This document shows, piece by piece, positions 2,439 to 64,000 of a DNA stretch of 64,000 nucleotides; position 1 is the stretch's first letter; each line of letters begins with the position of its first letter. The notes under the pieces are model-generated. The model had not been told where the DNA came from and did no database searches. It saw only the letters and a program-made list of their open reading frames with translations. The stretch lies in IMG/VR virus record IMGVR_UViG_3300030061_003600. One strand, written 5' to 3'. This stretch comes from a virus. Position numbers and translations under genes: made by a program.

Positions 2439-3026
2439 ATGAGTGCAAAAGGAGGATTTACAATAGGACCATCACACGCAGAGGGTGGAATACCAATGAC
2501 CGTAAAATCAACGGGTCAGAAAATTGAGGTTGAGGGTGGAGAAGGTATTATCAATAAAAAATCTATGGCGGATAATCGTAAATTCAAAGTGGAAGGAACA
2601 CCAAAGCAAATAGCATCTGCGATAAACGAAATAGATGGTAATGGAGTGAGTTTTGATAAAGGAGCCCAAATTACAATGTTTCGCAGAGGGGGAATAATGT
2701 ACGAGCCACAGGTTTGCGATAGATATGCAAAATCTTGTGGAGAATATGATTTTTATGTATCAGATGGTGGCGAAAGTAAAAAAATAGGAGGAATTAAAAC
2801 AAAACCCAATTATTCTAATCCCCAAATGCTAAACATAGAAAAAATTAATATAGATGAAGATTTTTCCAATCCTCATACTTATAAATTCTACACCCAAGCC
2901 GTAATAGATGCATCAAAGAAAAAGGGTGCAGTTATAAACATTGAGTGTTTAGATGATAAGTGTATGTCCTCTTTGATTGACATAAGTGAGATGAATGATG
3001 ATTGCGACAAACTAACAATAAGATAA
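2439..3026 (+). CDS. protein with GPSHxxGGI...EVEGGE N-terminal domain and GG motifs
   Basis: SAKGG, GPSHAEGGIP, EVEGGEGIINKKS, MFRRGG followed by an unrelated domain. Confidence 0.6.
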   Translation: MSAKGGFTIGPSHAEGGIPMTVKSTGQKIEVEGGEGIINKKSMADNRKFKVEGTPKQIASAINEIDGNGVSFDKGAQITMFRRGGIMYEPQVCDRYAKSCGEYDFYVSDGGESKKIGGIKTKPNYSNPQMLNIEKINIDEDFSNPHTYKFYTQAVIDASKKKGAVINIECLDDKCMSSLIDISEMNDDCDKLTIR

Positions 3027-17212: not shown

Positions 17213-19461
17213 GAAAGTTTTTAGACACATTTCCTAATATAAAACTTCAGCAGTTATATACAGTATATCCTGATTATAATGTTTTTATTAACGAATTAAT
17301 TGAGTTAGATAAAAAGGTAAAAGAAGGTGTTTCGGTAGAGGTTGAAGAGCAATATGAATTACTTATGAATACTTTGGATGCCTTTTTATTTAGAGAAAGT
17401 AGCATTGAAAAGTTTAACAATGTATATACTAACCCTATACAACAAATTGATATATCATTGATACCACAACAAGGAGTATCATTGCCATTAGAAGAAAGAG
17501 AAGAAATAGAAGCAGATTTAGAAAGCGAGATAAAGGAGATGATGAAAGGAGTGGATAGTGATGTTGTTGAAGAAATAATGCAAGAAAACGAAGAACAAAA
17601 ACAAAAGATAATCGGAGAGGAAATGCCAATCCGAACAAGAGAAGATTTTGATGAAGAAGATAGGTTTGTGGGGATAAGTTGGAAATATGATACTTTCAAG
17701 CAAACTGAATTTGCCCTTGCTCTTGCTATGTTAAAGCAAGGTTGTAAATTTTATTATACTACATATGGGTCCAAGCATTTCGCAATGTTTAAGTTAAAGG
17801 GAATGGGTAGAATAATTATAGAAACATCAGAGGAAAGATATAGTTATGATAACTTATTTCAACCATCTAATAAAGAATTAAAAGTATTTATGCTTGATGA
17901 TAGTGGAAAATCATTGCAAACTATTTTCAATATATTCAAAGATGCTTGGGATATGGATGAGGATTCTTATTCCAAATTAGATGATGAATTTTTATTTAAT
18001 ACTCCATACATATATTCAGCATATCAAGAAGGTGTATTGTGGAAAGAGGCAGAATTGCTACAACAGTCAAGGGGTATTGTTGAAAGAGGAAGATGGCTCA
18101 ATGAGTATTTTTCATTATATGTTCCTTTAGAAAGAATATGCACATTACAGTTGTGTAAAGAGGTTCACCAAAACACAAGGGGAAGCGAGGCAGATGCAAA
18201 AGAAGTTATACAAAGAGATTTAAAGGAAAATACCTTTTATATAGAGGGTATTGGGGATGTAAATCATTCCTATGATATTTTAGAAAAATTACAAACTCAA
18301 AACCTATTAGATATAAATTATAAACCTACTCCACTTGCATCCGGATTGCTTTCTTACAATAGCGATAAAATTATGCCGCAGTTCAGACCATTTATGTATT
18401 ATATGAACAATTTGGGTGAAAATTTGAAAAAATCAAAAGAAACTTATTATTCCTCTTTTAATGGTCAAACAGTTTATCACACCAAAAAAGATGTTAAGGA
18501 TATAAAATTTGCTTTAGCAATTCCAAGTACGGACAGACAACTGATGGGTGTTGAGAATGCTATTCAGGCAGATTCTTTTCCTGTTAAATGGCAACAAGAA
18601 GAAGATTTTAAGAACTACCACGAGTATTTAACATTTGCTTCCGGAGGTAGTTTAAGTATTAGAAAAATGCACGAAGCCCGTGAGCAAAGAAAAGCAACAC
18701 AGGGTAAAATAATGTTTAGAGATTTAGACCGAAAAGAATTATATGTAGCAAGTACAGAAAGACCCGGCATAAATTACTGCATTAACGGACAAGATTATAG
18801 GTATATATGCTCAATGTACGGAGAGGATAATATACGAATTTTAGGAACACCCGATTCACCTTTTAGTAAGCCATCATTAGTATTTTTTATGATAGTAGAT
18901 GCCAAAAACAACTTATTAGCAGTATTGTCTGCACTTGGCTCACAGGCACAACCGGCAACTAAAATGGTGGAAACAAGAAAGGGGGTTTGGGAGGAACAAG
19001 ATAGACAGATTTCTCCACGAATTCCAATAGATATGCAAGAAAAGATTTTGAATCAAAGGGAGGAAATACAATTAGATATTCTTGCAAGTTGGATAACCCT
19101 ATCTTCAAGAAATTACCCAAAAGAAATTTGGGATATGCAGAGTGCCGTAGAAGAGGTAGAAAAAACTGCACCTGTTCTAACATTAGAGGGAAAAATGATA
19201 GGTGAAAAAGAAGATATAGACACGAGTAATGAAGAGGAAATAAAAACAGATGAGGCGGAAAAAAGGGAAGATATAATTATAGATTTTGACAACCCTGAAG
19301 AGCCAATCGTTTTAGTAGAAGATGAGAAAACAATTAAATTAAAAGAACTAAATGAAGAGTTACTTGACCTGCAAGATTATATAGAGGAGATAGGAAATGA
19401 CCCGGATGCAGAAAAAGAAATTGAAGAAATAAAACAAAATATAGAAGCATTAAAACAATAA
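17209..19461 (+). CDS. large hypothetical protein (750 aa) with acidic ends
   Basis: Long ORF overlapping the helicase stop; one FASGG; no family recognised. Confidence 0.75.
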   Translation: MRKFLDTFPNIKLQQLYTVYPDYNVFINELIELDKKVKEGVSVEVEEQYELLMNTLDAFLFRESSIEKFNNVYTNPIQQIDISLIPQQGVSLPLEEREEIEADLESEIKEMMKGVDSDVVEEIMQENEEQKQKIIGEEMPIRTREDFDEEDRFVGISWKYDTFKQTEFALALAMLKQGCKFYYTTYGSKHFAMFKLKGMGRIIIETSEERYSYDNLFQPSNKELKVFMLDDSGKSLQTIFNIFKDAWDMDEDSYSKLDDEFLFNTPYIYSAYQEGVLWKEAELLQQSRGIVERGRWLNEYFSLYVPLERICTLQLCKEVHQNTRGSEADAKEVIQRDLKENTFYIEGIGDVNHSYDILEKLQTQNLLDINYKPTPLASGLLSYNSDKIMPQFRPFMYYMNNLGENLKKSKETYYSSFNGQTVYHTKKDVKDIKFALAIPSTDRQLMGVENAIQADSFPVKWQQEEDFKNYHEYLTFASGGSLSIRKMHEAREQRKATQGKIMFRDLDRKELYVASTERPGINYCINGQDYRYICSMYGEDNIRILGTPDSPFSKPSLVFFMIVDAKNNLLAVLSALGSQAQPATKMVETRKGVWEEQDRQISPRIPIDMQEKILNQREEIQLDILASWITLSSRNYPKEIWDMQSAVEEVEKTAPVLTLEGKMIGEKEDIDTSNEEEIKTDEAEKREDIIIDFDNPEEPIVLVEDEKTIKLKELNEELLDLQDYIEEIGNDPDAEKEIEEIKQNIEALKQ

Positions 19462-19464
19462 GAT

Positions 19465-22400
19465 ATGGAGGAATATAAAGGTAAAACAATTGAGGAGTTA
19501 AGCGAGTTATTAGATGATTTGCAAGAGCAACAAGAGGTTTTGATTGATGACCTTGATGACCCGGATTTAAAAGAGGCATATGATAGTAATGAAGCCGAAA
19601 TTGCAAGAATAAAATCTGCTATGGGGACAACAGTTGGTAGTGTAGAGCAAGATTTAGAGTATAGAGAAGAAATGGATGCTATGGAAAAAGAGATAGATGA
19701 AAAAGATGAAACCTTTGTAGTTACGGAAAAAGAAGTTAAAAATTCTGATTTAGAAAATAGTAAATTCTCCGATATTAAAATAGATAAAAGCATCTTTTTT
19801 GGAGATGGTGGAAAAACAAAAACAGGAATTATGAAAAATATAGATTTAGACACTTACCATAAAATGCGTAATGCAGAATTTAATAAAGAAGTGAAAGCGG
19901 GAAGAATGGAAGATACTGATGAAAATTGGGAAAGATTTGATGAGGAGTATTTTGAGGAACTTTATGCTAAAGGATATACGATAGAAATGGCAAAAGGTGG
20001 TGCAATTTATAAGGGACATAAAGTAAAGATAAAGGATAGCGGTAAAACAATGAAGGTTACTGATGTATCTAAAAACAAAAAAGACCAAGTAGAGTTTTCA
20101 GGAGATGAAGGAACATACTTGATTGGAGATATTGAAAAAATGGAAAAAGGTGGTAAGGTTTTTAAGGCACCTAAAGGTTGGAGAAAAACAAAACAAGATG
20201 AAGGAGAAAAAACTTATAAGCATAAAGATGGAAGAGAAATTATAGTATCTGATAGTATGGTGGGAACCCCATCTTTTGAGGTAATATGGGAAATAGAAAA
20301 ATCTTACAATTGGGAAGATTGGAAAACAAAAAAGTTTCCGATGAACAAAGAGGGCACTAAAAAAATGGAAGAATTTTTGACAAAACTAATGAGTAGTTCT
20401 TATGCAAAAGGTGGTAAGATTGAAATTACATCTGCACCCGACTATCATAAGGTAAGAAATAAGGAGTATGATAAAAGAGTAAGAGAGGGAAAAATCAAAG
20501 ATACTGATGAAAATTTTGAAAAATTTGATGATGAGTATTTTAATGAATTAGTCAAAAAAGGTAAAATTGATATGGACAATTATTTCGCAAAAGGTGGTAA
20601 AACTGATGATGTAATTATGATTAAAATAGGTGGGGATAAAAAATACCCATATTATATTAAGAAGATTGACACTACACATATGTCTATGGCTAACAATAAA
20701 GATGGAGTTGATTTAGTTGTTCCATCTCATATTTTGCAACACAAAGGAGAAAGTTATTATGATGATGTTCGTTCTTGGTTAAAAGGAGGGCAAAGTCCTA
20801 ATGGAAAATCTTATGATAGTGATTATTACGCTAAAGGTGGTGAAGTAGACAAAGAATACATAATTAGAGTTTACGAAAATCAACAAGATTACGAATTTGA
20901 TGAAAACTATGATAATGTTTATTTAGATGATAAAGCACCAAGCAAAAAAAGAGCCATTAGGAAAGCCCGAGAAATAGAAAATAATAAAGGTAAAAAAGAT
21001 ACTTGGGTAAGAGTAATAGATAATGCATCACAATACAATGATGAAATATATTCTACTACATTTCCTCAAGGTTTTGAAAAAGGTGGAGAAGTAAAATGGG
21101 ATTTTAGTGAAGAAGAAGTTATAGATGGTGCTAATAATTTAGCATCTGCACTAACGCTTATAGATGGAAAATTATTTCAGGTACACGATTTTGAATATGA
21201 CAAAGGTAAAGGTGCCGGTTTTGAACTATCAATAGATGATGAAAAATATGCAGGAGGAAGTTATTATATTGATGCAGATGGCACAATGATAAATGCGGCT
21301 ATGAGTGGTGCTCCTTATGGTAATATAAAAGATAGTAAAAGGGAGTTAATAAAAGCATCTAAATCATTTGCAAAAGGTGGAGAAACTGCTACCGATTATT
21401 CAGGAGAATATAGAGATTTAAGAACTTTTGTAATGAGAAATGGTTTGCGAGAAGCAATGGGTAAAAAATATGGCTTTGAGGCAAAAGATTATGAAGATTA
21501 TGTAAGAGGAGAGTTGGGATATGATACTGAAGTTATACAAGAATTAGCAGGAGATAGATATAAAGTTGAGTATATAGAGAGATACGATGAAGCAACAGGA
21601 AGGAGAGATAAAGATGGAGAAGGAGTTATTATTGTAAGCAAATCATTTGCAAAAGGTGGTATGACAGGATTTAATAAGTTTTTTGATAAATTCAAAAGAA
21701 GTGATGCTTATATATCTGAACCAAGGAAAACTGCTAAAGGAAATTACATAGTAGAAGTAGAGCCACACGATAAAGAAACATCTAAACAAATGAAAGATTA
21801 TATGCAAAGTGAAGGTATAGGATATAGTCCTAAACCTATGGGTAAAGGTTTTTATACTCAATTTGCAAAAGGTGGAGAAACTGAAAAAGGTTATTTAGTT
21901 CTTTTATATGCAGGTTCATATCAATTTAAGAACTCATCAGAGTCAAATATATATTTAAATACTTTGGTTGATGCAATAGAATATGCCAAAAAAGAAATGC
22001 GAAAACAAAGAAATTATCGTTCATCAACGGATAAAATGTGGGCAGTAATTAAAGGAGAAGGGCAAGATATAAGAATAACTGAAGATGATGTTAAAGATTA
22101 TTATGAAAAAGGTGGTCCTATCAAAAGAGGAAGTGGAGCAAGAATGAGTATTGATTTTATAAAAGAAACAAGAAAAGTTGGTGATTTTGTAAGGGTTGAA
22201 ACTGATATTTTGGGAAAAGAAGAATTAACAGGAGAAATTGAGAGTTTCAGTCCTTTAAAAATAAGAACAGATGAAACATCAGTTGTAGTAATTCCTAATG
22301 AGTCCATCAAATATCTTACAGACCCAAGTCCTTTCAACTATGCAAAAGGTGGAGAAATTAGTATAGAGGGAAATCCTTATAAAAATGAAGATTTTTTCAT

Positions 22401-24051
22401 ATATAGAAATGGAAAAGAAGTAGCAAGTTGGAATGTAGATGAAATGGCAGAAGATGAAGATGTAGAAGATTTAGCCAAAGAAATGTTTTATTTGTGGAAA
22501 AATGATGAAGAAGAATTAGGAAAAAGATTAGATAGAATAAGTTATGCAAAAGGTGGTAGTATAGAAAAAGAATTAGAGGGTTATCAGGGAATGTATGATT
22601 ATGCGATAGCCAACAATTTTACACCAAGCCAATTAGCAGATGAATTAGAATTTACAACAGGTTTAAAAGATGAAAGAGATAAAAAGTTTTATGCTCATCT
22701 TAAAAATTTAACTCGTATGTTTCCTGATAAACCCCTTTCTGAATTTGCAAAAGGTGGTGTAACTAAAGGGCAAACATTAGCCGAAAATTTTAATAGGAAA
22801 GATGAAGTTAAAAATGTGGAATTTTGGAAAAATGATGTCATAGTTAAAGATAAAGATGGAAAAGCAGTAAGAATAGATTTGGATAAAGGAGAAAGAATAG
22901 AGTTAAATGCAAAAGGAGGAGAAACTGCTTCACCAATAACTAATTATCATAGAACTATAATGGGGACATTAGGGTTTGATTTGAAAGTTAAAGGAATGAG
23001 AAAAGCACAAGATTTTATTGTATATCCTATTGTTGCAAAAACAGATACTATAAGAATTCAAAGTGATAAAAAATGGGGAGAGATACATATTAATACAGGA
23101 AAAGGAATTTTAAGCAAGTCAGGAAGCACGAGTTGGCATTTACACGCTGATATGATGAATATGAATGTCATTAAGTTTGAATTAACACCCGAAGAATTGG
23201 AAGAATTAAAAAAACAAATAAAATCTACTTCAGGAAAAGATGTAGGTAATACTATTATGAGAACTGATAATAGCGGAGCAGCACTTCTTGAGCACGGAGG
23301 AGAAATTGATTTAAATGAGGTTGATATATATGAAGCGGATGAAAATGGAAATTTTACGGTTGTGATTGATGGAGATGTCTTTGATATGAATTATCATACT
23401 ATGCCTAATATGAGTGTTAATATGTATGCAGGAAGTCGTTCAGAATATCCTTCAGACATTAGTCATTGGGGTAAAAAAATAACATTTGAAGATGCACCTC
23501 AAGTTATAAAAGATAAAATAGGAAAGAGAATAGAGGAATTCCATACGCATTTAGATAAGGGAGGTAAAATCAAGGAAGATAAAAGAAAGTGGTCACATCA
23601 TATGTGGTTCACAAATGAAAAACCGGGTGACACTTATTATTATGAAGATGCCGTAATAGATTATTTGATAGATAATCCACGAACTTTTAAGTTAGATATA
23701 AATAGAAGAGCCCTAAATAAGCCGGGTAAATTATCTGAAGTTTATAAAGATATGGGAATAAGCACAAGTAGTGGATATTTAAATCCTCAAGATATAAAGC
23801 AGTTTGCTATTGATAATGAGAAATACGATTGGTTAAAGATAGAAGGAGATAGAGGTTCTGACTCAAGAAAAAGAACGATTAAAAAGTATTTAGATAGAAG
23901 AAAAAAATATGCAGAATATGCAGAGGGTTTATCAAGAGAAGAATTATTAGAGCAAATTGAAATGTTAAATACGATGGCTTGGGAAGAAAAGGATAATGAA
24001 ATGAGGTCAGAAATGTTAGCAGAAGTAAATAAAATGAGAACACAACTATAA
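19465..24051 (+). CDS. modular protein of about 18 small domains separated by 17 [YFM][AE]KGG-type motifs
   Basis: Motifs in order: FGDGG, MAKGG, MEKGG, YAKGG, FAKGG, YAKGG, FEKGG, FAKGG x3, YEKGG, YAKGG x2, FAKGG, NAKGG, LEHGG, LDKGG. Confidence 0.85.
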   Translation: MEEYKGKTIEELSELLDDLQEQQEVLIDDLDDPDLKEAYDSNEAEIARIKSAMGTTVGSVEQDLEYREEMDAMEKEIDEKDETFVVTEKEVKNSDLENSKFSDIKIDKSIFFGDGGKTKTGIMKNIDLDTYHKMRNAEFNKEVKAGRMEDTDENWERFDEEYFEELYAKGYTIEMAKGGAIYKGHKVKIKDSGKTMKVTDVSKNKKDQVEFSGDEGTYLIGDIEKMEKGGKVFKAPKGWRKTKQDEGEKTYKHKDGREIIVSDSMVGTPSFEVIWEIEKSYNWEDWKTKKFPMNKEGTKKMEEFLTKLMSSSYAKGGKIEITSAPDYHKVRNKEYDKRVREGKIKDTDENFEKFDDEYFNELVKKGKIDMDNYFAKGGKTDDVIMIKIGGDKKYPYYIKKIDTTHMSMANNKDGVDLVVPSHILQHKGESYYDDVRSWLKGGQSPNGKSYDSDYYAKGGEVDKEYIIRVYENQQDYEFDENYDNVYLDDKAPSKKRAIRKAREIENNKGKKDTWVRVIDNASQYNDEIYSTTFPQGFEKGGEVKWDFSEEEVIDGANNLASALTLIDGKLFQVHDFEYDKGKGAGFELSIDDEKYAGGSYYIDADGTMINAAMSGAPYGNIKDSKRELIKASKSFAKGGETATDYSGEYRDLRTFVMRNGLREAMGKKYGFEAKDYEDYVRGELGYDTEVIQELAGDRYKVEYIERYDEATGRRDKDGEGVIIVSKSFAKGGMTGFNKFFDKFKRSDAYISEPRKTAKGNYIVEVEPHDKETSKQMKDYMQSEGIGYSPKPMGKGFYTQFAKGGETEKGYLVLLYAGSYQFKNSSESNIYLNTLVDAIEYAKKEMRKQRNYRSSTDKMWAVIKGEGQDIRITEDDVKDYYEKGGPIKRGSGARMSIDFIKETRKVGDFVRVETDILGKEELTGEIESFSPLKIRTDETSVVVIPNESIKYLTDPSPFNYAKGGEISIEGNPYKNEDFFIYRNGKEVASWNVDEMAEDEDVEDLAKEMFYLWKNDEEELGKRLDRISYAKGGSIEKELEGYQGMYDYAIANNFTPSQLADELEFTTGLKDERDKKFYAHLKNLTRMFPDKPLSEFAKGGVTKGQTLAENFNRKDEVKNVEFWKNDVIVKDKDGKAVRIDLDKGERIELNAKGGETASPITNYHRTIMGTLGFDLKVKGMRKAQDFIVYPIVAKTDTIRIQSDKKWGEIHINTGKGILSKSGSTSWHLHADMMNMNVIKFELTPEELEELKKQIKSTSGKDVGNTIMRTDNSGAALLEHGGEIDLNEVDIYEADENGNFTVVIDGDVFDMNYHTMPNMSVNMYAGSRSEYPSDISHWGKKITFEDAPQVIKDKIGKRIEEFHTHLDKGGKIKEDKRKWSHHMWFTNEKPGDTYYYEDAVIDYLIDNPRTFKLDINRRALNKPGKLSEVYKDMGISTSSGYLNPQDIKQFAIDNEKYDWLKIEGDRGSDSRKRTIKKYLDRRKKYAEYAEGLSREELLEQIEMLNTMAWEEKDNEMRSEMLAEVNKMRTQL
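19993..22760 (+). repeat. dispersed in-frame repeat AAAGGTGG (core of WWTGCAAAAGGTGG), 13 consecutive motif copies
   Basis: Motifs 2-14 of the 1528-aa ORF all use AAA GGT GGN; spacing about 150-300 nt. Confidence 0.85.
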
Positions 24052-24060
24052 CTTAATTAT

Positions 24061-26289
24061 ATGAGCATAGAAGAGAATAGAAAAAAAGAAATGGGTTTTC
24101 CTAAAAATCCTGACAATATAACTAAAGATGAACTTCACGAACATTTTGATTTAAATAATGATGGTAAAGTTAATATAGAAGAGTATGCTGAACATATTAA
24201 TTATCATTGTGAAAACCCTGATGTTTTAGAGGATGAAATGCAACAAGCAGATTTTGAACGAGGTTTTAAATATGCAGAGGGTGGAAAGGTAGAAAAATAT
24301 ATAATTGTAAGGGGTACTAAATATGGTGAAAAGTATTATTACCAAAAGGGTACTAATGAACATAACAACAAATGGTTAAGAACTAAAAAAGGGGCTACTA
24401 TTTTTACTGACATTAAAGAAGCAGAAAAATATGCTGATGAATCCGATGGAGATATAGAAAATTTAACTACCTATGCAAAAGGTGGAGAGGTAGAGATATT
24501 TAGTTATTACTTTGATGTTGATAAAGTAAAAAGCATAGAAAATGTAGAAGTATTTACAAATCAAAGAAAAGGACATAAGAATTATGTGAGAGTAGATTAT
24601 ATTCAGTTGTCTAAACCCCAAACTATGCAAGTTGATTTTAGAAAAATACCATTTGATACACAAGAGGAATTAACCTACATTAAAAAAACTTTACGAGATA
24701 ATTTCGGCTCTACCTATGCAAAAGGTGGTAAAACTAAAAAAGCCAAAACTTGGAAAGAAAAGTATAATAAAAAGTATGGTAATGATTTAGATGCATCAAA
24801 TTCTTTATCAGACATTGCAGAAGATACAGGAGTTTCAAAAAAAGGAATACAAAAGATATATAATAAAGGTATTGGGGCATATAAAACAAACCCCTCAAGT
24901 GTTAGACCTAATGTTAAGTCAAAAGAGCAATGGGCTCAAGCAAGAGTTTATAGTGCAGTAATGGGAGGCAACGCAGCCAAAGTAGATGCTAAAGAGTTAA
25001 AAATGGAAAAAGGTGGAGCATTAAAAAAAGAGTTTAAATTTGACAAAAATTTTGTAATATATGTTCCTTCTACTACTGATGTTGGAGAAAAAATATCTAA
25101 AAAAGAATTAGAAAAGAGGGTTCAAGAAGTAGAAAAATATGTAGCCAATGAATTTGGAGGATATACTGAAACAGAAACCGATGGAGGGTATAAATCAACT
25201 TCAGGAGAGATAATAGAGGAAGATATTGTTAAAGTATCAGTATTTGCTAATAATAAAGATTGGAAAAATAACGAAAACAAAGTTGTAAAGAAAGTAAAAG
25301 AATGGTCTAAAAAATGGGGTCAGGAAGCCATAGGATTTGAATTTGAAGGAGATTTATATTATATAGATGCAGATGGAAAGTTTGGATGGGGAGGAACTAT
25401 ACTTGGTGCTCTTGTCGGGGGGTATGCAGGATATAAGATAGGAAGGGCAAGACCCCAAAAGAAAGGATTTGACACCGAAAAGAAATTAATTAATAGAGCC
25501 AAAAACACAAGATGGGACAAAGATGGCGGCATAAGGTATGCAAAAGGAGGAGAAATGATGAAAGGAATTAGAACACCTAAAATAGTAGAGTTTGAAGATG
25601 GTGGAGAAGTTGATTTATTTGAGCATTATGAAAAACTGCCAACTAAATCAAAAATTATTGTTGATTATTATATGCAAAAGTATGAAGATGGAGATTACGA
25701 TTATAGTGATAGTAAAAAGTTCCTTGAAGAAATGGAAAAAACCGGATATACTTTTGAATATGGGTTAGATAATGAGCCATATGATTTAAGAAAAATGAAA
25801 ATAGGCGGGGCATTAGAATTAGTACACGCATATGATGATGATGGCTCCTTATTTGGAACAGGACATATAGAAAAAGTAGAAGGCGGAAAGACCTATGTTA
25901 GATTTGATAGCCAAAAGGTTAAGGCATTTGATAATGACAAAGTTAAGCCCGTAATGGCAAAGGGTGGATTAACACCTGCCAAAGCAAAGAAAATGTTAGA
26001 TGATGGAATGGCTCAAGGAAAGCCGCTTACTGATAGGCAAAAAAGATATTTTGGGGCAATATCGCAAGGAAAAGCAGATAAAGCAAGAGAAAAATCAAGT
26101 ATGAAGAGGGGAGGAAAAACAAAATCTATAAATTATAAAAAGAAAGATTATGGTTTAGATTATTTATATAATCAATTAAAAATTAGTCGTGAACTTTTAG
26201 ATAGAGCAACAACTACTGATGAAAAAGATATTCTTTCATTAAGATTGAAAAGCATACAAAAGGTAATTGATAATACATTGAGAATATGA
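24061..26289 (+). CDS. second GG-motif modular protein with N-terminal EF-hand
   Basis: EF-hand loop DLNNDGKVNIEE; motifs YAEGG, YAKGG x3, MEKGG, FEDGG, MKIGG, MAKGG, MKRGG. Confidence 0.8.
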   Translation: MSIEENRKKEMGFPKNPDNITKDELHEHFDLNNDGKVNIEEYAEHINYHCENPDVLEDEMQQADFERGFKYAEGGKVEKYIIVRGTKYGEKYYYQKGTNEHNNKWLRTKKGATIFTDIKEAEKYADESDGDIENLTTYAKGGEVEIFSYYFDVDKVKSIENVEVFTNQRKGHKNYVRVDYIQLSKPQTMQVDFRKIPFDTQEELTYIKKTLRDNFGSTYAKGGKTKKAKTWKEKYNKKYGNDLDASNSLSDIAEDTGVSKKGIQKIYNKGIGAYKTNPSSVRPNVKSKEQWAQARVYSAVMGGNAAKVDAKELKMEKGGALKKEFKFDKNFVIYVPSTTDVGEKISKKELEKRVQEVEKYVANEFGGYTETETDGGYKSTSGEIIEEDIVKVSVFANNKDWKNNENKVVKKVKEWSKKWGQEAIGFEFEGDLYYIDADGKFGWGGTILGALVGGYAGYKIGRARPQKKGFDTEKKLINRAKNTRWDKDGGIRYAKGGEMMKGIRTPKIVEFEDGGEVDLFEHYEKLPTKSKIIVDYYMQKYEDGDYDYSDSKKFLEEMEKTGYTFEYGLDNEPYDLRKMKIGGALELVHAYDDDGSLFGTGHIEKVEGGKTYVRFDSQKVKAFDNDKVKPVMAKGGLTPAKAKKMLDDGMAQGKPLTDRQKRYFGAISQGKADKAREKSSMKRGGKTKSINYKKKDYGLDYLYNQLKISRELLDRATTTDEKDILSLRLKSIQKVIDNTLRI

Positions 26290-26353
26290 CCCTGCTTTTA
26301 AGGGGTAAAAAAAAATTAACTTAACAAATGTGGTTAATTATTTTAAAAAATAA

Positions 26354-26361
26354 TATATTTG
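26354..26361 (+). promoter_or_regulatory. Bacteroidota-type -7 element TATATTTG
   Basis: TAnnTTTG in the intergenic gap, 20 nt before the ATG at 26382. Confidence 0.55.
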
Positions 26362-26381
26362 TAACTTAAAATGATAATAAA

Positions 26382-26960
26382 ATGGCAACTAAAATAGAAG
26401 CATTAGAAAAGACAATAAGGGCACAGGAAAAAATGAAAGCCAACTTTGAAAAGAAGGGTAAAGATAAATTTTCAAAGAAAATAGAGGAAAAAGTAAAGGA
26501 CTTAAAAGCAGAACTTAAAAAATTGAAAGATGCTGATAAGCCAAAGAAAGAAGCAAAAAAACCTGCAAAATCAAAATCAAAGAAAATTGCAGGAACAATG
26601 TCCGAAGAAGATTGTAGAAAATTACTGAAAAAGATGAGGGGCAAATATATGAAATCAGAAAGCACTACTAAAAAGAACATTGAAGAAGGTAGAGCAACAA
26701 AGGATGGTGTTTTGAAGCCAAGTGCTTCATTAGAAAATGAGTCAGAAAGTATTGAAAATAAAGCCGACTCCGGACAAACTATCAATAAAAAAGAACAAAA
26801 AGCCATTGCTTTTAACATTGAAACAATTGTAAAAAATTGTGTAGAGATGATAAAATATAAAAAAGATGCCGACCAATTACTTAAAGATTTAATAAGGTCT
26901 TTAGGGGAATTAAGAGCAGATATAGCATCGGGAAGATTAAAGCCCGGAGCACAAAATTAA
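26382..26960 (+). CDS. very basic Lys-rich protein, possible DNA-binding/condensing protein
   Basis: KPKKEAKKPAKSKSKK and overall Lys excess. Confidence 0.6.
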   Translation: MATKIEALEKTIRAQEKMKANFEKKGKDKFSKKIEEKVKDLKAELKKLKDADKPKKEAKKPAKSKSKKIAGTMSEEDCRKLLKKMRGKYMKSESTTKKNIEEGRATKDGVLKPSASLENESESIENKADSGQTINKKEQKAIAFNIETIVKNCVEMIKYKKDADQLLKDLIRSLGELRADIASGRLKPGAQN

Positions 26961-33597: not shown

Positions 33598-34416
33598 ATG
33601 AGAGAACCAAAACTCGGTATGGCAGTAGGAAAAAAAGGGATTGGTAAAACTTACCAAACCAAAATTCTAATTGAGTCCTATGTATATGGAAACCCTGAAA
33701 AGGGTGTGTTGCCAAGAAGAGTTTTAATTTTAGATGTAAATGATGAGTTTGTAGATTATAAAGCCATTTCAATGAAAGATTTGGTAAAGTTTTCAGTTAT
33801 GCCTAATGCAGAAATAAGAAGAGTAAGACCTTTTGATGAGAAAACAGGAATTAGATTAACTTTAAAAGAGATAGCAAATTGCTTATGGGACATACTTCAT
33901 TATTTCCGAGGGGGTATGCTATTAATTGAAGATATAAACAAATATGTAGGTGACCACTTGCCAACAGATATAGTTGGTGCAATATGTTCTAATAGACATA
34001 CGGATTTAGATATAATTATGCATTTTCAGAGCATTGGAAGAATAACAACAAAAGTATGGCAAAATGCTAATTGGTTAAGATTTCATAAAAACTCTGATAG
34101 TATAGAAAGGCATAGAAATAAATTTCCTGATAAATATGAAATGTTTAGTATTGCGGAAAATATAGTAAATACTCAATACTTTAATGACAATCCACGGTAT
34201 TTTGTATATGTAGATTTAGATGAGGAAAAGATAAAAGGAAAAATGAGTGAAACAATTATTTTAAATGGAATTGATGAATATCTGTCCCGAAATTTTAATT
34301 CAGTTGTAAAACCTGCTATAAACAAAAAAAGTTTAACAGATGGCTCTAAAATAGATAGAGATGAAGCAATACAAAAGGTAAGAGATAGAATCAGGATTCA
34401 ATACTTTGATAAATAA
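33598..34416 (+). CDS. FtsK/HerA-superfamily (A32/P9-like) genome packaging ATPase
   Basis: Walker A GKKGIGKT near N-terminus, VLILDVNDEF, Walker B LLIEDIN, RH...IIMHFQS motif; single-domain size (272 aa). Confidence 0.75.
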   Translation: MREPKLGMAVGKKGIGKTYQTKILIESYVYGNPEKGVLPRRVLILDVNDEFVDYKAISMKDLVKFSVMPNAEIRRVRPFDEKTGIRLTLKEIANCLWDILHYFRGGMLLIEDINKYVGDHLPTDIVGAICSNRHTDLDIIMHFQSIGRITTKVWQNANWLRFHKNSDSIERHRNKFPDKYEMFSIAENIVNTQYFNDNPRYFVYVDLDEEKIKGKMSETIILNGIDEYLSRNFNSVVKPAINKKSLTDGSKIDRDEAIQKVRDRIRIQYFDK

Positions 34417-36986: not shown

Positions 36987-37179
36987 TTATGGATTGTAAG
37001 TCCTACGGGCATTTCGTTAAAAGTTCTCCTCCCGTTGAGCAATGCTCCGGTTGAGTTGAGAATGGATAACAAACATAGTTATGAAGTTTTGTAAAAATGG
37101 GACAACCCGTAAGGGGAGTTTTTGATTTAATAGGAAAGTCCTATTAATTAGTGTTAAACCAAAAAAAATTAAAGAAAAA
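36987..37179 (+). ncRNA. putative structured RNA / 5' leader of the capsid gene
   Basis: GC-richer than flanks; CCC-GTAA-GGG, TTAATAGGA-AAG-TCCTATTAA (37127-37147), possible GGGCATT/AATGCTC pairing. Confidence 0.4.
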
Positions 37180-37899
37180 ATGGAAAATTTAAACCGTTAT
37201 TTCTCTGATGCAGAAGAAAACATCTCAAATGAGTATATGTCAGCAGATGGCGTAAACGAATGGGATGATGCTTTTGACTTTGGTGGTTCCGAAGAAGAGT
37301 ACCTAAATGCAGTAGGGTCTGCTGATGCAAGTTCATCACAACCTTACATCATTTCACTTTATAACTCTACGGCAGCAGATATTGCTTCTGTTGAGGTAGG
37401 AGGTGCGTATAACAACATTACAACGACTGTTGGCGATAAAGCCAATACTGCGGGTGTTGCATATACAATGGGTATTTCAGGTGTAACTTATCTTGAATTT
37501 TTGTGGCAAAGTAGTTCAAAACCATTCGTGGTTGGACTTACTTACTTACAATCTGATGGAGGTTCATCTCAAGTTCTTGAAACTATCGTAGTGAAAGTAG
37601 TGGACTCTAATGGTAACCAACAACAAAAAACTCTTGTTCCAACAATTGACCCTTACCAAAACCAAACAGACATTACTGTATTAAAGCATACCTACAAGTG
37701 GGATGGCTTTACTACATTAACAGTTAATAATGTGACTGCAAAGAAAACTTTAAAAGTTTACTTGTTCCCATCTGAAACTGTTTCTCAAGGTCGTGCTCTA
37801 ACAGGCAATTCAATTGCTCGTGGTTATGGTAATCCAAATGTTGTAAGACAAGATAAAATTGTTTTAGGTCAAGGAGTTGCTCGTGCATTAAGAGGTTAG
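37180..37899 (+). CDS. major capsid protein candidate (single jelly-roll-sized beta domain after an acidic leader)
   Basis: About eight beta-strand segments in ~140 aa; high-expression codon bias (CGT, GGT, TAC, AAC, ATC) unlike neighbours; own leader and terminator; near the ATPase. Confidence 0.6.
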   Translation: MENLNRYFSDAEENISNEYMSADGVNEWDDAFDFGGSEEEYLNAVGSADASSSQPYIISLYNSTAADIASVEVGGAYNNITTTVGDKANTAGVAYTMGISGVTYLEFLWQSSSKPFVVGLTYLQSDGGSSQVLETIVVKVVDSNGNQQQKTLVPTIDPYQNQTDITVLKHTYKWDGFTTLTVNNVTAKKTLKVYLFPSETVSQGRALTGNSIARGYGNPNVVRQDKIVLGQGVARALRG

Positions 37900-39635: not shown

Positions 39636-39772
39636 TGGCTTTAGAACCTTACGAACAAGAAGAGATGGAAATGGATGTAATACAGAATGGAATATCCGTA
39701 AAGTATTTAGCCATTGCCGGTGGAGTGTTAGTAGCATTAATAGTAGGAATAAATTGGTTAATTAGAAGATGA
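39635..39772 (+). CDS. small TM protein (45 aa, not in ORF track)
   Basis: Overlaps the upstream stop and downstream ATG; YLAIAGGVLVALIVGINWLIRR. Confidence 0.7.
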   Translation: MALEPYEQEEMEMDVIQNGISVKYLAIAGGVLVALIVGINWLIRR

Positions 39773-40599
39773 ATATATTATTTAAAACAAAGCAAAAGTC
39801 ATTAACAATAATGATAGAGGTCGTTACAGATGGTCCTCAAAAAATGCAAATTGTTGTAAAGGATATAAATAAGCCAAATACGGATTATACAAACCGATAT
39901 GCAACCATAAATGGAACACAGAGGTTTTTTGTAAGAATGCCAATGTCACCATATGAAGCATTAATTAGCGTGTATAATAAAGCAAATGGCAATTTAAAAC
40001 AAGGTCAAGACCCAACTTTTAAAGTAGTAAAAGTGGATGCAAGACCTTTAGAAAGAAAAATGGATTGTGTTGATTGGAGTAATCCAAAAATTAGGGATTT
40101 TGTGAATTTTGCACAACAATTCTCTGACAACGCAGGTATATTAAGTGCAGGAAAGTTTCCTAATGGGAGCACATATATCTCTGATGAGGGTAATTTTAGA
40201 ATAGATTACTTTGATGATATAAGAACAAAAAGAGGTTTGGTAATACAAACCCCTGCAAGAATTAGTCAGTCCAAAGGAATTATACAAGTGAGCAAAGCAC
40301 ATTATAAAAAGTTCACAGTTCCAATGAGAATGGCAATTCTATTACACGAATTTTCTCATTTTTATTTAAATGAGAATATGGAAGATGAAACAGAAGCAGA
40401 TTTGAATGGATTATTAATTTATTTGGCTCTTGGTTATCCAAGGATAGAGGCATATCAAAGTTTCCTTACAACATTTAAGGACACACCGACACCTCAAAAC
40501 AAAGAAAGGTTTGACATTTTAAATCAGTTTATAACAAATTTTGAAAGAAATAAATTTTGTACTCAATATAACACACCCAATTTGAATGCAAGTAGATAA
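39769..40599 (+). CDS. HExxH zinc metalloprotease (gluzincin-type), candidate maturation protease
   Basis: AILLHEFSHFYLN followed by ETEAD; N-terminal beta domain; no TM. Confidence 0.7.
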   Translation: MNILFKTKQKSLTIMIEVVTDGPQKMQIVVKDINKPNTDYTNRYATINGTQRFFVRMPMSPYEALISVYNKANGNLKQGQDPTFKVVKVDARPLERKMDCVDWSNPKIRDFVNFAQQFSDNAGILSAGKFPNGSTYISDEGNFRIDYFDDIRTKRGLVIQTPARISQSKGIIQVSKAHYKKFTVPMRMAILLHEFSHFYLNENMEDETEADLNGLLIYLALGYPRIEAYQSFLTTFKDTPTPQNKERFDILNQFITNFERNKFCTQYNTPNLNASR

Positions 40600-61112: not shown

Positions 61113-62201
61113 ATGGCTGAAAACAAAAAATGGATAGCAGCAGTAAATGCAGAAATGAAAAAGAAGGGAACAGTAGGTTCTTTTACTAAACAAGCCAAAA
61201 GAGCAGGAATGTCTGTTCACGATTTTGCTATGAAAGTAAAGGAGAATCCTGAAGATTATTCTAAAAAAACACACGAAAGAGCAGGTTTGGCTTTAACTTT
61301 TGAGAAAATGGCTAAAGATAGAAAGTATGCAGCAGGTGGAAAAACTCAAGGATATAATGATAAGTTAGATGAAGATTTAGGAACAAGATTAGGTAGAGAG
61401 AGAGGTTATAAACAATCATTAAAAGACCGTAGAGATGAAAGTAAAGCAGGAAATAAAACTCTTGGTCGTAGAGCATATGCAAGTGTAGATACTATGGATA
61501 AAGGAGATAGAATGTTTATGCACGGAGGAAAAACTAAAATGATGCACGGAGGTTTTACAGAAGATTACACATTAAAATTCAAAAGAGATACAGATGTTAG
61601 AATTGTAGGTGAAGATGGAAATGTAGTTGATGTTGAAAATTATAAAAAAGGTGACCAAGAAAAAGTAGATATATTATCTTCTGATGGTAAATTTTTAATG
61701 GTACAATTTCAAGATGGTTATGTAGGTCATATCAATAAAGAAGATGTGCAAGACCAAATGTATATGCACGGAGGCAAAACGCAAGGTTATGCCGATGAGC
61801 AAGATGAGAGTTTAGGAATGAGAACAGGAGCAGAATCTACTAAAAAACAAAGTATGAAAGCCCGTAGAGATGATTCTTACGGAAAGTGGGGTAAAAGAGA
61901 TATGGAAGATAGAGATATTACTATGGCACGAGGTGGGTCTGTAAAAGGAAAAATTGATAGAGATAGATATGTAAAACTGCGAAGAGATAAAGACAAAGAA
62001 ATTGCTAAACTAAAGAAAGAAAAAGGTGCTTTAAGAAAAGCAACTATCACTAAAGAAAAATGTGATGACAAAATTGAAACTCGTTTAGAGGGAGAGTCAA
62101 ATGCAATAAAATTGAAAGAGTCAAGTGGAGATACCAACCAAACTTTACTTATTGGAGGTGTAGCCGGAATTTTATTTGGAGCATTCTTAATTGGAAGATA
62201 A
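61113..62201 (+). CDS. third GG-motif modular protein, with C-terminal TM
   Basis: YAAGG, FMHGG, MMHGG, YMHGG, MARGG; two related GGKTQGY modules. Confidence 0.75.
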   Translation: MAENKKWIAAVNAEMKKKGTVGSFTKQAKRAGMSVHDFAMKVKENPEDYSKKTHERAGLALTFEKMAKDRKYAAGGKTQGYNDKLDEDLGTRLGRERGYKQSLKDRRDESKAGNKTLGRRAYASVDTMDKGDRMFMHGGKTKMMHGGFTEDYTLKFKRDTDVRIVGEDGNVVDVENYKKGDQEKVDILSSDGKFLMVQFQDGYVGHINKEDVQDQMYMHGGKTQGYADEQDESLGMRTGAESTKKQSMKARRDDSYGKWGKRDMEDRDITMARGGSVKGKIDRDRYVKLRRDKDKEIAKLKKEKGALRKATITKEKCDDKIETRLEGESNAIKLKESSGDTNQTLLIGGVAGILFGAFLIGR

Positions 62202-62203
62202 TT

Positions 62204-64000
62204 ATGAAAAGAAGAAATAGACAAAATAGTTATGAGAGAGGGGGGCAGTTAGAACTTGCCAAGGCAATGGGTAATGTTGCCAAAAAAGGTGAAAAAGAAA
62301 TTAATGAGGGAAGAGAAGAAATAAAAAGTTTAAGAAAGGATATTACAAAGACAGAAAATGAAGTTAATAATTTGAAAAGAGGTATTGACATTCAAAATAA
62401 ACTTAAAACAAAAAAAGAAGGTATTATTAAGGACATAAAGAAAGATTTAGGCGGAATATATAATACTGTTCAAGATGCAAAAAAACAAAAAGCAAAATTT
62501 GCCGATGGTGGAGATATAAAAGCCACATCTGAATACACTTTTAGCGAATTATATAAAATGCCTTATGGTAAATTAGAAAAGTATTTTAAGAAGTTTTATG
62601 GATATGAGGGAGATGAAGAAGTTGTTTTTGATGAAATATATACAGATAGTCAATTTGTGGGTAAAAGCGAAAAAGAAAAAAAGAAAATACTAATAGATAA
62701 TTTCAAAGATTTTGCAAAAGGTGGGGAAATAACAAATGCAGATGGCGAAACTAAAACAAAAGAAGAGTGGATAAAAGATTGGGAGGAATGGCAAGAAAAA
62801 TCATACGGAAGTGAGTATTATGATGTTCCTAAACTTGTAGAGCACTATGATATGCAAGGAGAACTTGCAGAACAAGTCAAATATGATTTAGAAATAAGTA
62901 GAAGTCAAGCCGAAGAGTTGGCAGAAATGATATATAAAAAACATTCAGAAGGGGGGACAAAATTTAAAAAAGGTGGGGATTTAGATTGGGGAGATGAATA
63001 CACAATAGAAATTTGGGAAACGGAAGAACACAGGGAGCATTTAGGACCTGACACTATATTGCCTGATGGCACGACTGATGAAGAGGTTATTTCAGAGGCA
63101 CGGAAGTTTTTTGAAGATTATGCTGCGGTAGAGGTTGAGAAAAATGGAGAAGTTATTTTTCATATATCTACTGATGCCCCTAAAGGAAAAAGATATGCAA
63201 AAGGTGGTAGTGTAGAAGATAAAGAATATGTATTAGAAAGATACTATGTATATGTAAGCCGAGATAGTTATGAAGAGGGAGAGTTAGATAATGTGCATAA
63301 TTGGGATAGTTCTGATATGCAAGAAAATAATAAAACTTTCTCATCAAAATCTGCTTTAATGGACTTTATCAAAGAAGTAATTGATAGAGATACACAAGAG
63401 GACAGGACAATAGATGATTACTTTATGATTGAAAGTGATGATGATGAAACTACTATTGATTATTCAGTATTATGTAAGTATAATGCATTAGGTAGAGGTT
63501 ATGACCATTACGAAAAAGCATCTGATGAAGAAATAGAAAAATGGAAGAAAGGTGATTTAGAACTATTTAATGTTGGTTTTACATTTAAAGTAAAGGTATA
63601 TGAGCCGAGAAAGAAAGCAGAATTTGCAAAAGGTGGAATTACCAAAGAAGAAGCCATAAAGGAAGCATTAAGGCAGGGGGTAGATTTTGAAAAAGATTTT
63701 CACGCACAAAGTAAAGGGAATGAATTAGTAGAGATAGCCAAAAAACAAGGTTATCAAAAGCCAAAAAGTGCAAGTGGGAGTAGAGGGAGATATTTCTTTT
63801 ATTATTTACAAAAAGAATATGATAAGAATAAAGAATATGGCTACTATGATGATTATGCTAAAGGTGGATTTATTAAAGACAACTATTGGGGAATTGATGA
63901 AGATGAATTTAATGAATTAAAAGAAGAAAAGCAGTTAGATTTAGGAAAATGGCATCTGTATTATAATGATACTATGAATGAGTGGGAGGCAACAATGGAT
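62204..64000 (+). CDS. fourth GG-motif modular protein, 3'-truncated by the window end (not in ORF track)
   Basis: Manual translation from ATG 62204 stays open to 64000 (599 codons); YERGG, FADGG, FAKGG, FKKGG, YAKGG, FAKGG, YAKGG. Confidence 0.85.
   Translation, partial: MKRRNRQNSYERGGQLELAKAMGNVAKKGEKEINEGREEIKSLRKDITKTENEVNNLKRGIDIQNKLKTKKEGIIKDIKKDLGGIYNTVQDAKKQKAKFADGGDIKATSEYTFSELYKMPYGKLEKYFKKFYGYEGDEEVVFDEIYTDSQFVGKSEKEKKKILIDNFKDFAKGGEITNADGETKTKEEWIKDWEEWQEKSYGSEYYDVPKLVEHYDMQGELAEQVKYDLEISRSQAEELAEMIYKKHSEGGTKFKKGGDLDWGDEYTIEIWETEEHREHLGPDTILPDGTTDEEVISEARKFFEDYAAVEVEKNGEVIFHISTDAPKGKRYAKGGSVEDKEYVLERYYVYVSRDSYEEGELDNVHNWDSSDMQENNKTFSSKSALMDFIKEVIDRDTQEDRTIDDYFMIESDDDETTIDYSVLCKYNALGRGYDHYEKASDEEIEKWKKGDLELFNVGFTFKVKVYEPRKKAEFAKGGITKEEAIKEALRQGVDFEKDFHAQSKGNELVEIAKKQGYQKPKSASGSRGRYFFYYLQKEYDKNKEYGYYDDYAKGGFIKDNYWGIDEDEFNELKEEKQLDLGKWHLYYNDTMNEWEATMD

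Follow-up and report, generated by a model that had tools for sequence, protein, structure and literature searches.

In a 64,000-nucleotide stretch of viral DNA (IMG/VR record IMGVR_UViG_3300030061_003600; hereafter the window), three open reading frames (ORFs), here called arrays 1, 2 and 3 (Table 1), are strings of modules joined by one short linker, [YFM][AE]KGG. We observed that the codons of this linker depart from background, that module order differs between related loci and that the breakpoints fall in the linker motif, including those of recent events between genomes that are 99-99.9% identical. These data support the proposal of a first-pass annotation of the window that modules are gained, lost or shuffled by recombination at the repeat. 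We consider it probable that the three ORFs are arrays of the polyvalent-protein type, in which a linker that is probably a cleavage site doubles as a short-homology crossover site.

The core of the linker DNA, the 8-mer AAAGGTGG, occurs 24 times in the window, always on the + strand and never on the − strand (expected 2.76 ± 1.69; maximum 8 in 100 shuffles). Arrays 1, 2 and 3 hold 13, 3 and 5 copies, respectively, and these 21 copies all read in frame as the Lys-Gly-Gly of [YFM][AE]KGG. Three further copies, at 1806, 15301 and 35270, lie outside the arrays; this number equals the chance expectation, so a genome-wide Chi-like role of the 8-mer is not supported. The 13 consecutive AAA GGT GGN motifs reported between 19993 and 22760 by the first-pass annotation were all found in frame in array 1, and its further copies near 24480-25013 (three) and in 62204-64000 (five) were located in arrays 2 and 3 (Table 1). 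It had also placed the motif within a longer repeated sequence, and we observed GCA AAA GGT GG at 9 of the 13 array 1 sites. WWTGCAAAAGGTGG occurs 12 times in the window and GCAAAAGGTGG 14 times. Exact repeats spanning the core measure 8-23 nucleotides (nt) between pairs of array 1 sites and 8-20 nt between adjacent pairs.

Array 1 opens with a conserved N-terminal module and closes with a constant C-terminal block (modules 15-17), with 13 variable modules in between; it matched no Pfam or PHROG family. At the linker variant before this block, L001, L002 and L003 (three of the related loci, L001-L011) carry GGT where the window has GGA. Two Gly-Gly sites of another peptide type, LLEHGG and HLDKGG, separate modules of families F04, F01 and F21, which are always adjacent in relatives. 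The WLKGG inside module 5, which had been singled out in the first-pass annotation as a non-motif site coded AAA GGA GGG, was confirmed as such (Table 1). Within the folded module, its W60, L61 and G63 are conserved, and module 5 is present whole in 8 other arrays.

Codon choice at the linker was strongly biased. At the consensus motif sites of the window, the first Gly was GGT in 21 cases and GGA in 2, compared to GGT in 25 of all 136 other Gly-Gly pairs (p = 1.4e-11, Fisher test) and in 6 of the 22 other pairs within the same three ORFs (p = 1.3e-5). At background frequency, the chance of GGT at 13 of 13 sites is ~3e-7. The first-pass annotation had judged GGA the commoner Gly codon by eye, and outside the three arrays we counted 691 GGA and 399 GGT codons. 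We performed the codon test for the family on the DNA of 11 related loci. Among 129 unique motif contexts, the first Gly was GGT in 104, Ala was GCA in 108 of 112 and Lys was AAA in 127. In a strict set of 84 junctions, neither flank of which is in common with another accepted junction, the first Gly was GGT at 65 of 84 sites (background 34%, p = 5e-16), Ala was GCA at 69 of 72 (background 54.5%, p = 4e-15), Lys was AAA at 82 of 84 (background 79%, p = 1e-6) and the second Gly was GGT at 43 of 84 (background 34%, p = 9e-4). The bias was present in every lineage, even in L007 with its GGT background of 23%. In a nucleotide logo of the 84 junctions, the conserved positions (T A/T T G C A A A A G G T G G) ran from −6 to +8 and no further, with no symmetric partner. 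Conservation of the linker DNA thus exceeds what the peptide requires, and the codon comparison suggested by the first-pass annotation comes out in favor of its proposal, with Ala and Lys codons biased as well.

Two general causes of the bias were ruled out. Codon-pair context does not account for GGT, because away from the motif AAA-GGN is AAA-GGT in only 30% of cases (137 of 463). Gene-wide codon optimisation fails because non-motif Gly-Gly pairs in the same ORFs track background (GGT in 20 of 74 such pairs in array ORFs across the family). A third proposal is that GGT serves to avoid the Shine-Dalgarno-like AAAGGAGG in a long gene, where it could cause pausing or internal starts. AAA GGA GG is a near-perfect Shine-Dalgarno sequence, but GGAG or GAGG lies upstream of 0 of 51 gene starts in the window, and AGGAGG, common in coding sequence, occurs 55 times; we rejected the proposal on these two grounds and give it next to no weight. 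In addition, GGA-GGN is the commonest Gly-Gly coding elsewhere, and the GCA and AAA biases would be left unexplained.

Selection at the protein level alone would keep the linker for cleavage or flexibility, filter random breakpoints by survival and attribute the codon bias to translational or messenger RNA constraint. Several features are in line with this. The residues after Gly-Gly are biased, with mostly Glu or Lys at P1' and a T at position 2 of the P2' codon in 71% of the 84 junctions (Val/Ile/Leu type; logo +15 to +19 after the aromatic codon), which gives an extended motif, [YF][AE]KGG[EK][VI], with a protein-level feature at P1' and P2'. Survivorship would likewise put junctions at linkers, and some junctions lie at GGA variants or off the motif. 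Such selection does not explain why GCA reaches 96%, AAA 98% and GGT 77-81% while other Gly-Gly pairs in the same ORFs stay at background, nor why degenerate motif variants that lack the Lys retain GGT (14 of 21). All junctions examined at the nucleotide level are, moreover, seamless within 9-23 shared nt. We consider protein-level selection an unlikely explanation by itself.

We observed that module order differed among related contigs, a comparison that the first-pass annotation had put forward, and that the breakpoints lay in the motif itself. Between the window and the syntenic loci L001-L003 (94-99.9% identical over the upstream 10 kb), homology stopped and resumed at the motif in nearly every case. 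Comparison of 10 loci in all pairs placed 114 of the 137 homology-block ends between −12 and +20 of the Lys codon, as opposed to 8 of 137 random positions; the pairs are not independent, and the pattern was uniform. Block starts peaked at −6/−7 and block ends at +7/+8 relative to the Lys codon, so the tract in common is WWTGCAAAAGGTGG. We also compared contigs of four sequencing runs over 19000-26500. Both ends lay within ~15 nt of motif sites in 8 of 13 joints, examples being 20415 to 20833, 21875 to 22907, 22563 to 22907 and 24466 to 24710, the last with 19 letters in common. Five of the six loose ends listed for run X1, which may be the source of the window, were likewise at motif sites; this suggests that variants co-occur in one sample.

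Recent events showed the joints at high resolution. L004 and L005, which come from different samples, are 99.8-99.9% identical over 10 kb; their sole difference is one module of 246 base pairs (bp), with its junction inside TGCAAAAGGTGGA. L004 and L006 have in common a 100% identical 233-bp module at another array position, with 14-23 nt in common at the joints. Between the window and L001, whose flanks and backbone are 99.2-99.9% identical, we observed ~6 cassette-level events in 6.8 kb. One of these events is an extra module in array 1 of L001, which is 99.5% identical over 205 nt to window 62991-63195, a copy that lies 40 kb away in array 3. Homology of the inserted module spans AAAAAGGTGG to AAAAGGTGG, and its junctions fall in 9-10 nt of core; judged from this alignment, one cassette and one motif were evidently copied into another motif site in L001. 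The array 2 module at 24478-24721 is missing from L001 and from a contig of run X19, with 19 nt in common at the joint. In L001 (13059-13285, compared to window 21875-22907), the first array ORF stops seven codons past a motif, and homology resumes with a new ORF at the motif that follows. A run X4 contig has a joint from 22359 to 24715 that fuses array 1 to array 2. Because the L001 split and the run X4 joint both map to motifs, gene fission and fusion take place at the same sites as module exchange.

Modules within one array had different histories. Adjacent window modules were 99.6, 91.0, 97.0 and 100% identical to L001. Module 7 had its closer match in L002 (98.2%) and not in L001, even though L002 is just 94.5% identical in the backbone. 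Module 9 was 93.8% identical to a module of L009, a locus that differs in gene content and has 68-78% identity in the other genes in common; the homologous block starts at TTTGCAAAAGGTGGT. False module orders could arise if metagenome assemblers mis-joined contigs at the repeated motif, and the relatives are all metagenomic contigs, some with 2-3x coverage. The repeats measure only 8-23 nt, and assemblers normally use longer k-mers. The pattern was present in both short-read and long-read assemblies (as judged by contig names only), and an identical array, P0022, was found on 49 contigs, with three loci from three samples. Mis-joining would also not be expected to give neighboring modules of different identity. 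An assembly artefact is therefore very improbable.

We propose the following mechanism. The arrays would be strings of small domains, autonomous and for the most part unrelated, that are joined by [YF]-[AE]-K-G-G. This linker is coded nearly always by one stretch of 11-14 nt, (T)WT GCA AAA GGT GG, in one codon phase throughout. The linker repeats are the only sequence common to neighboring modules, arrays and phages, and crossover at them would be explained most economically by short-homology recombination or by template switching during replication, whether inside one array, from array to array or among co-infecting phages. Each exchange would delete, insert, move or replace at least one whole module with the frame kept; exchange from motif to motif would be in frame and module-precise because the linker has a single codon phase everywhere. 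Repeated exchange would keep the synonymous positions uniform, possibly aided by selection for exchangeability. The domains freed by cleavage would likely be effectors delivered with the virion, given the DarB-like neighbor (Table 1), and may act against host defences. Uniform synonymous sites could either cause efficient exchange or result from it through concerted evolution, and our data do not separate the two.

In a true site-specific system, a dedicated integron-like or homing-like recombinase or nuclease would recognise the 11-14-nt site, possibly by way of circles. The site is very uniform and in a single phase, and the clean insertion of a cassette with its motif at a motif 40 kb away is what excision of a circle and its reintegration would give. 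Pfam detected no integrase, transposase or recombinase among ORFs of at least 120 amino acids (aa) in the 64-kb window, which is part of a ~100-kb genome. The site has no dyad symmetry, its conservation is confined to −6 to +8, and crossover points vary inside the motif. The arrays occur in two phage types with no obvious flanking enzyme gene in common, and the precomputed Pfam matches of array-flanking genes in L001-L011 included no integrase or recombinase. We regard such a system as quite improbable.

Several points weigh against short-homology crossover at a cleavable linker. The failure to find a recombinase by Pfam is one, and Pfam likewise found no peptidase family in the window to go with the proposed cleavage at Gly-Gly. 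Tracts of 8-23 identical nt are shorter than RecA-type recombination usually needs. Not all breakpoints conform: 23 of 137 block ends are at non-motif places (for example, window 21354), and crossovers also occur where the window has GGA (22912 and 25543). Recombination was read from contig comparison, which locates novel junctions rather than showing the events or their enzymology. Junctions that survive selection for intact domains would lie at linkers as well, and breakpoint position alone is not proof of guidance by the DNA.

The off-consensus breakpoint at window 21354 was aligned to L001 11956-12217. L001 has TATGAAAAATC (Y-E-K-S) in place of the window linker, possibly a decayed or cryptic linker site.

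The linker is a probable cleavage site that would free the domains by a cut at Gly-Gly. We infer this from the polyprotein-like layout, from motifs near some N-termini and from a flexible tail. The motif lies 6-11 residues from some N-termini, as in MSAKGG of array protein P0023 and of the window ORF at 2439. The latter ORF (2439-3026, 195 aa), which starts with MSAKGG, had a non-significant match to a bacterial OTU deubiquitinase (E = 0.08). OTU enzymes cut after Gly-Gly, and as a protease candidate this ORF is a lead, nothing more. The ORF at 39769-40599 carries an HEFSH motif and had no Pfam or PDB sequence match.

We searched 5.8 billion proteins and obtained 23 array proteins (P0001-P0023) from marine metagenomes (ENA, JGI and Tara), all punctuated by [YF]AKGG-type motifs. 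Clustering of modules gave 63 families, whose order differed between arrays. The 17 modules of array 1 fell into 16 sequence families (F02 twice), with one module unclustered. Across arrays, a more constant frame was provided by the N-terminal module together with the F04-F01-F21 block at the C-terminal end. Most modules of the window's own arrays are without a known family. A few related arrays (P0023; L007 15764-19903) contain enzyme modules, namely a RelA_SpoT-like nucleotidyltransferase, an Eco57I-type methylase, DUF2958 and an ATP-dependent DNA ligase with WGR, which is consistent with host-takeover or anti-defence cargo.

Module 5 (window 20599-20841, 81 aa) served as an example. Its copies in other arrays occupy other positions with 92-96% aa identity, and its family comprises 121 representative clusters. 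It occurs motif-flanked in arrays, as stand-alone proteins of 70-110 aa and in other proteins without the motif. Conserved residues, apart from W60 and L61, include D24, H27, H44 and D56. An AlphaFold model built with an alignment was a compact domain (predicted local distance difference test score, pLDDT, 91.7), with the lowest confidence in the last residues, including YAKGG. The model had no significant match in the PDB by Foldseek, and the family had no Pfam match. AlphaFold of modules 5-9 without an alignment was uninformative (pLDDT 36). The model indicates that module 5 is an autonomous fold, which is also found alone. Giant proteins contain the module too, with ~13 tandem copies in P0073.

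We set the arrays beside systems already described. In phages and conjugative elements, polyvalent proteins were predicted to be processed into units, and recombinational variability of their cassettes was raised as a possibility (Iyer, Burroughs, Anand, de Souza and Aravind 2017; PMC5512222). Array 1 likewise has several unrelated domains in one phage polypeptide; the arrays stand beside a DarB-type gene, and their family includes RelA/SpoT, methylase and ligase modules. In contrast to the polyvalent proteins, the domains of the window arrays are mostly tiny and unannotated, they are joined by one fixed Gly-Gly linker, and Pfam detected neither an MPTase nor any other peptidase family; the linker is also conserved at synonymous sites and mapped as a crossover point. 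The terms 'linker', 'glycine' and 'shuffl' do not occur in the text of PMC5512222. The arrays fit polyvalent proteins in architecture and may fit them in context, and they add a fixed Gly-Gly linker with a mapped role in recombination.

T-even gp38 adhesins form chimeric proteins by exchanges in or near conserved glycine-rich motifs, according to the passages of PMC3157838 that cite Tetart et al. (1996, 1998). As described there, short conserved motifs lie between variable segments, and in the window arrays, too, exchanges map inside the motif. The gp38 motifs in those passages are the core of one fold with variable loops, whereas the window motif links autonomous non-homologous domains; unit number in the arrays also varies, and units move between genes. 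The arrays had no adhesin match in Pfam or PHROG, and the resemblance to gp38 is one of principle only.

The first-pass annotation had called the arrays integron-like, which holds as a functional analogy. As in integrons (IntI, attI and attC), exchangeable units are bounded by a repeated site and are gained, lost, reordered and moved between arrays. The likeness goes no further, since the window site is an asymmetric coding sequence of 8-14 nt rather than a folded attC, we found neither an integrase in the window nor attC-type symmetry at the site, and each unit is a segment read in frame within a single ORF instead of a self-contained, separate promoterless gene. The arrays are not an integron. 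Polymorphic toxin loci (Rhs/CdiA) have a conserved pre-toxin motif and orphan cassettes, and recombination at the motif installs new C-terminal modules. They differ in having one variable tip per protein together with immunity genes, whereas the arrays are phage-encoded, have 10-20 serial variable units and lack immunity genes. No description of these arrays was found in literature searched for an AKGG motif, for polyproteins of phages and for sites of cassette cleavage.

A more far-reaching version of the preferred reading is tentative, and we lean against it as a whole. The linker would be both an effector-releasing cleavage site and a phase-locked crossover site in an integrase-free "domain integron" of uncultured marine phages, probably of Bacteroidota. 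Injected anti-defence domains would be copied between arrays, genes and distant phages at a rate close to that of point substitution, circular or template-switch intermediates are conceivable, and selection for exchangeability would hold the synonymous sites.

In-frame shuffling at a short coding repeat with a synonymous signature offers a testable nucleotide-level mechanism for the fast rebuilding of phage multi-effector proteins. It would be a rare case in which recombination, and not translation, best accounts for the choice among synonymous codons. The linker gives a simple rule to find and excise array domains. If the modules are injected counter-defence factors, the arrays would amount to a rich, naturally delimited catalogue of small domains of unknown function, such as module 5.

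Table 1. Positions of the arrays, their linker sites and associated features in the window
Feature	Position	Strand	Basis or remark
DarB-like SF2 helicase giant, 2456 aa	9842..17212	+	Helicase_C, ResIII (Pfam); DarB-like antirestriction (PHROG)
Array 1, 1528-aa ORF, 17 modules of 51-179 aa	19465..24051	+	ORF call, module split, family clustering
13 in-frame AAAGGTGG cores: 19993, 20146, 20407, 20590, 20833, 21079, 21373, 21652, 21868, 22108, 22345, 22549, 22750	19993..22757	+	K-G-G of [YFM][AE]KGG linker
Internal WLKGG, AAA GGA GGG, inside module 5	20782..20790	+	Not a linker, never a breakpoint
Linker variant GCA AAA GGA GGA before constant C-terminal block	22909..22920	+	Homology to L001-L003 resumes (22907)
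Two Gly-Gly sites, LLEHGG (23296) and HLDKGG (23560)	23293..23565	+	GGA, without consensus peptide
Array 2, 742-aa ORF with DUF5824 module	24061..26289	+	AAAGGTGG cores 24478, 24721, 25009; variants 24277, 25543, 25960
Array 3, ORF open at window end	62204..64000	+	AAAGGTGG cores 62717, 62969, 63200, 63629, 63860
Array 3 module equal to extra module in L001 array 1	62977..63199	+	One mismatch

The window is AT-rich (~31% guanine-cytosine) and virus-like, with every gene on the + strand and no transfer RNA genes found in it. Its genes include an Amidase_3 lysin and a PAP2 protein (Pfam). Of note for the virion type are window 33598-34416 and 37180-37899 and the weak match of a small HerA/FtsK-type ATPase (E = 5e-4). 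Pfam scans of every ORF of at least 120 aa, and a PHROG scan of ten ORFs, gave no terminase family. Searches of the GenBank phage collection (by tblastn for the polyprotein) and of IMG/VR gave no relatives of the polyprotein or the ATPase, and IMG/VR gave none of the putative capsid gene. Array 2 had single-module matches only, to hypothetical proteins of Tenacibaculum and Cellulophaga phages. The leaders of the window genes are A-rich and of the TAAAAAATAAA type (for example, 19440-19464 and 37155-37179); A-rich leaders without Shine-Dalgarno sequences are typical of Bacteroidota and suggest the host group. From these leaders and the single-module matches, the window is likely to belong to a phage of marine Bacteroidota, with marine Flavobacteriia as candidate hosts.

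The order from the helicase giant through a 750-aa acidic ORF to arrays 1 and 2 is kept in relatives (synteny of L001-L008). The contigs behind L003 and L007 measure 97.6 kb and 122 kb, and related contigs reach ~100-120 kb. Directly before array 3, the ORF at 61113-62201 carries a different Gly-Gly repeat, M-H-G-G-K-T, three times (CAC GGA GGN), which is not coded by the AAAGGTGG core; the same ORF also contains YAAGG and MARGG.

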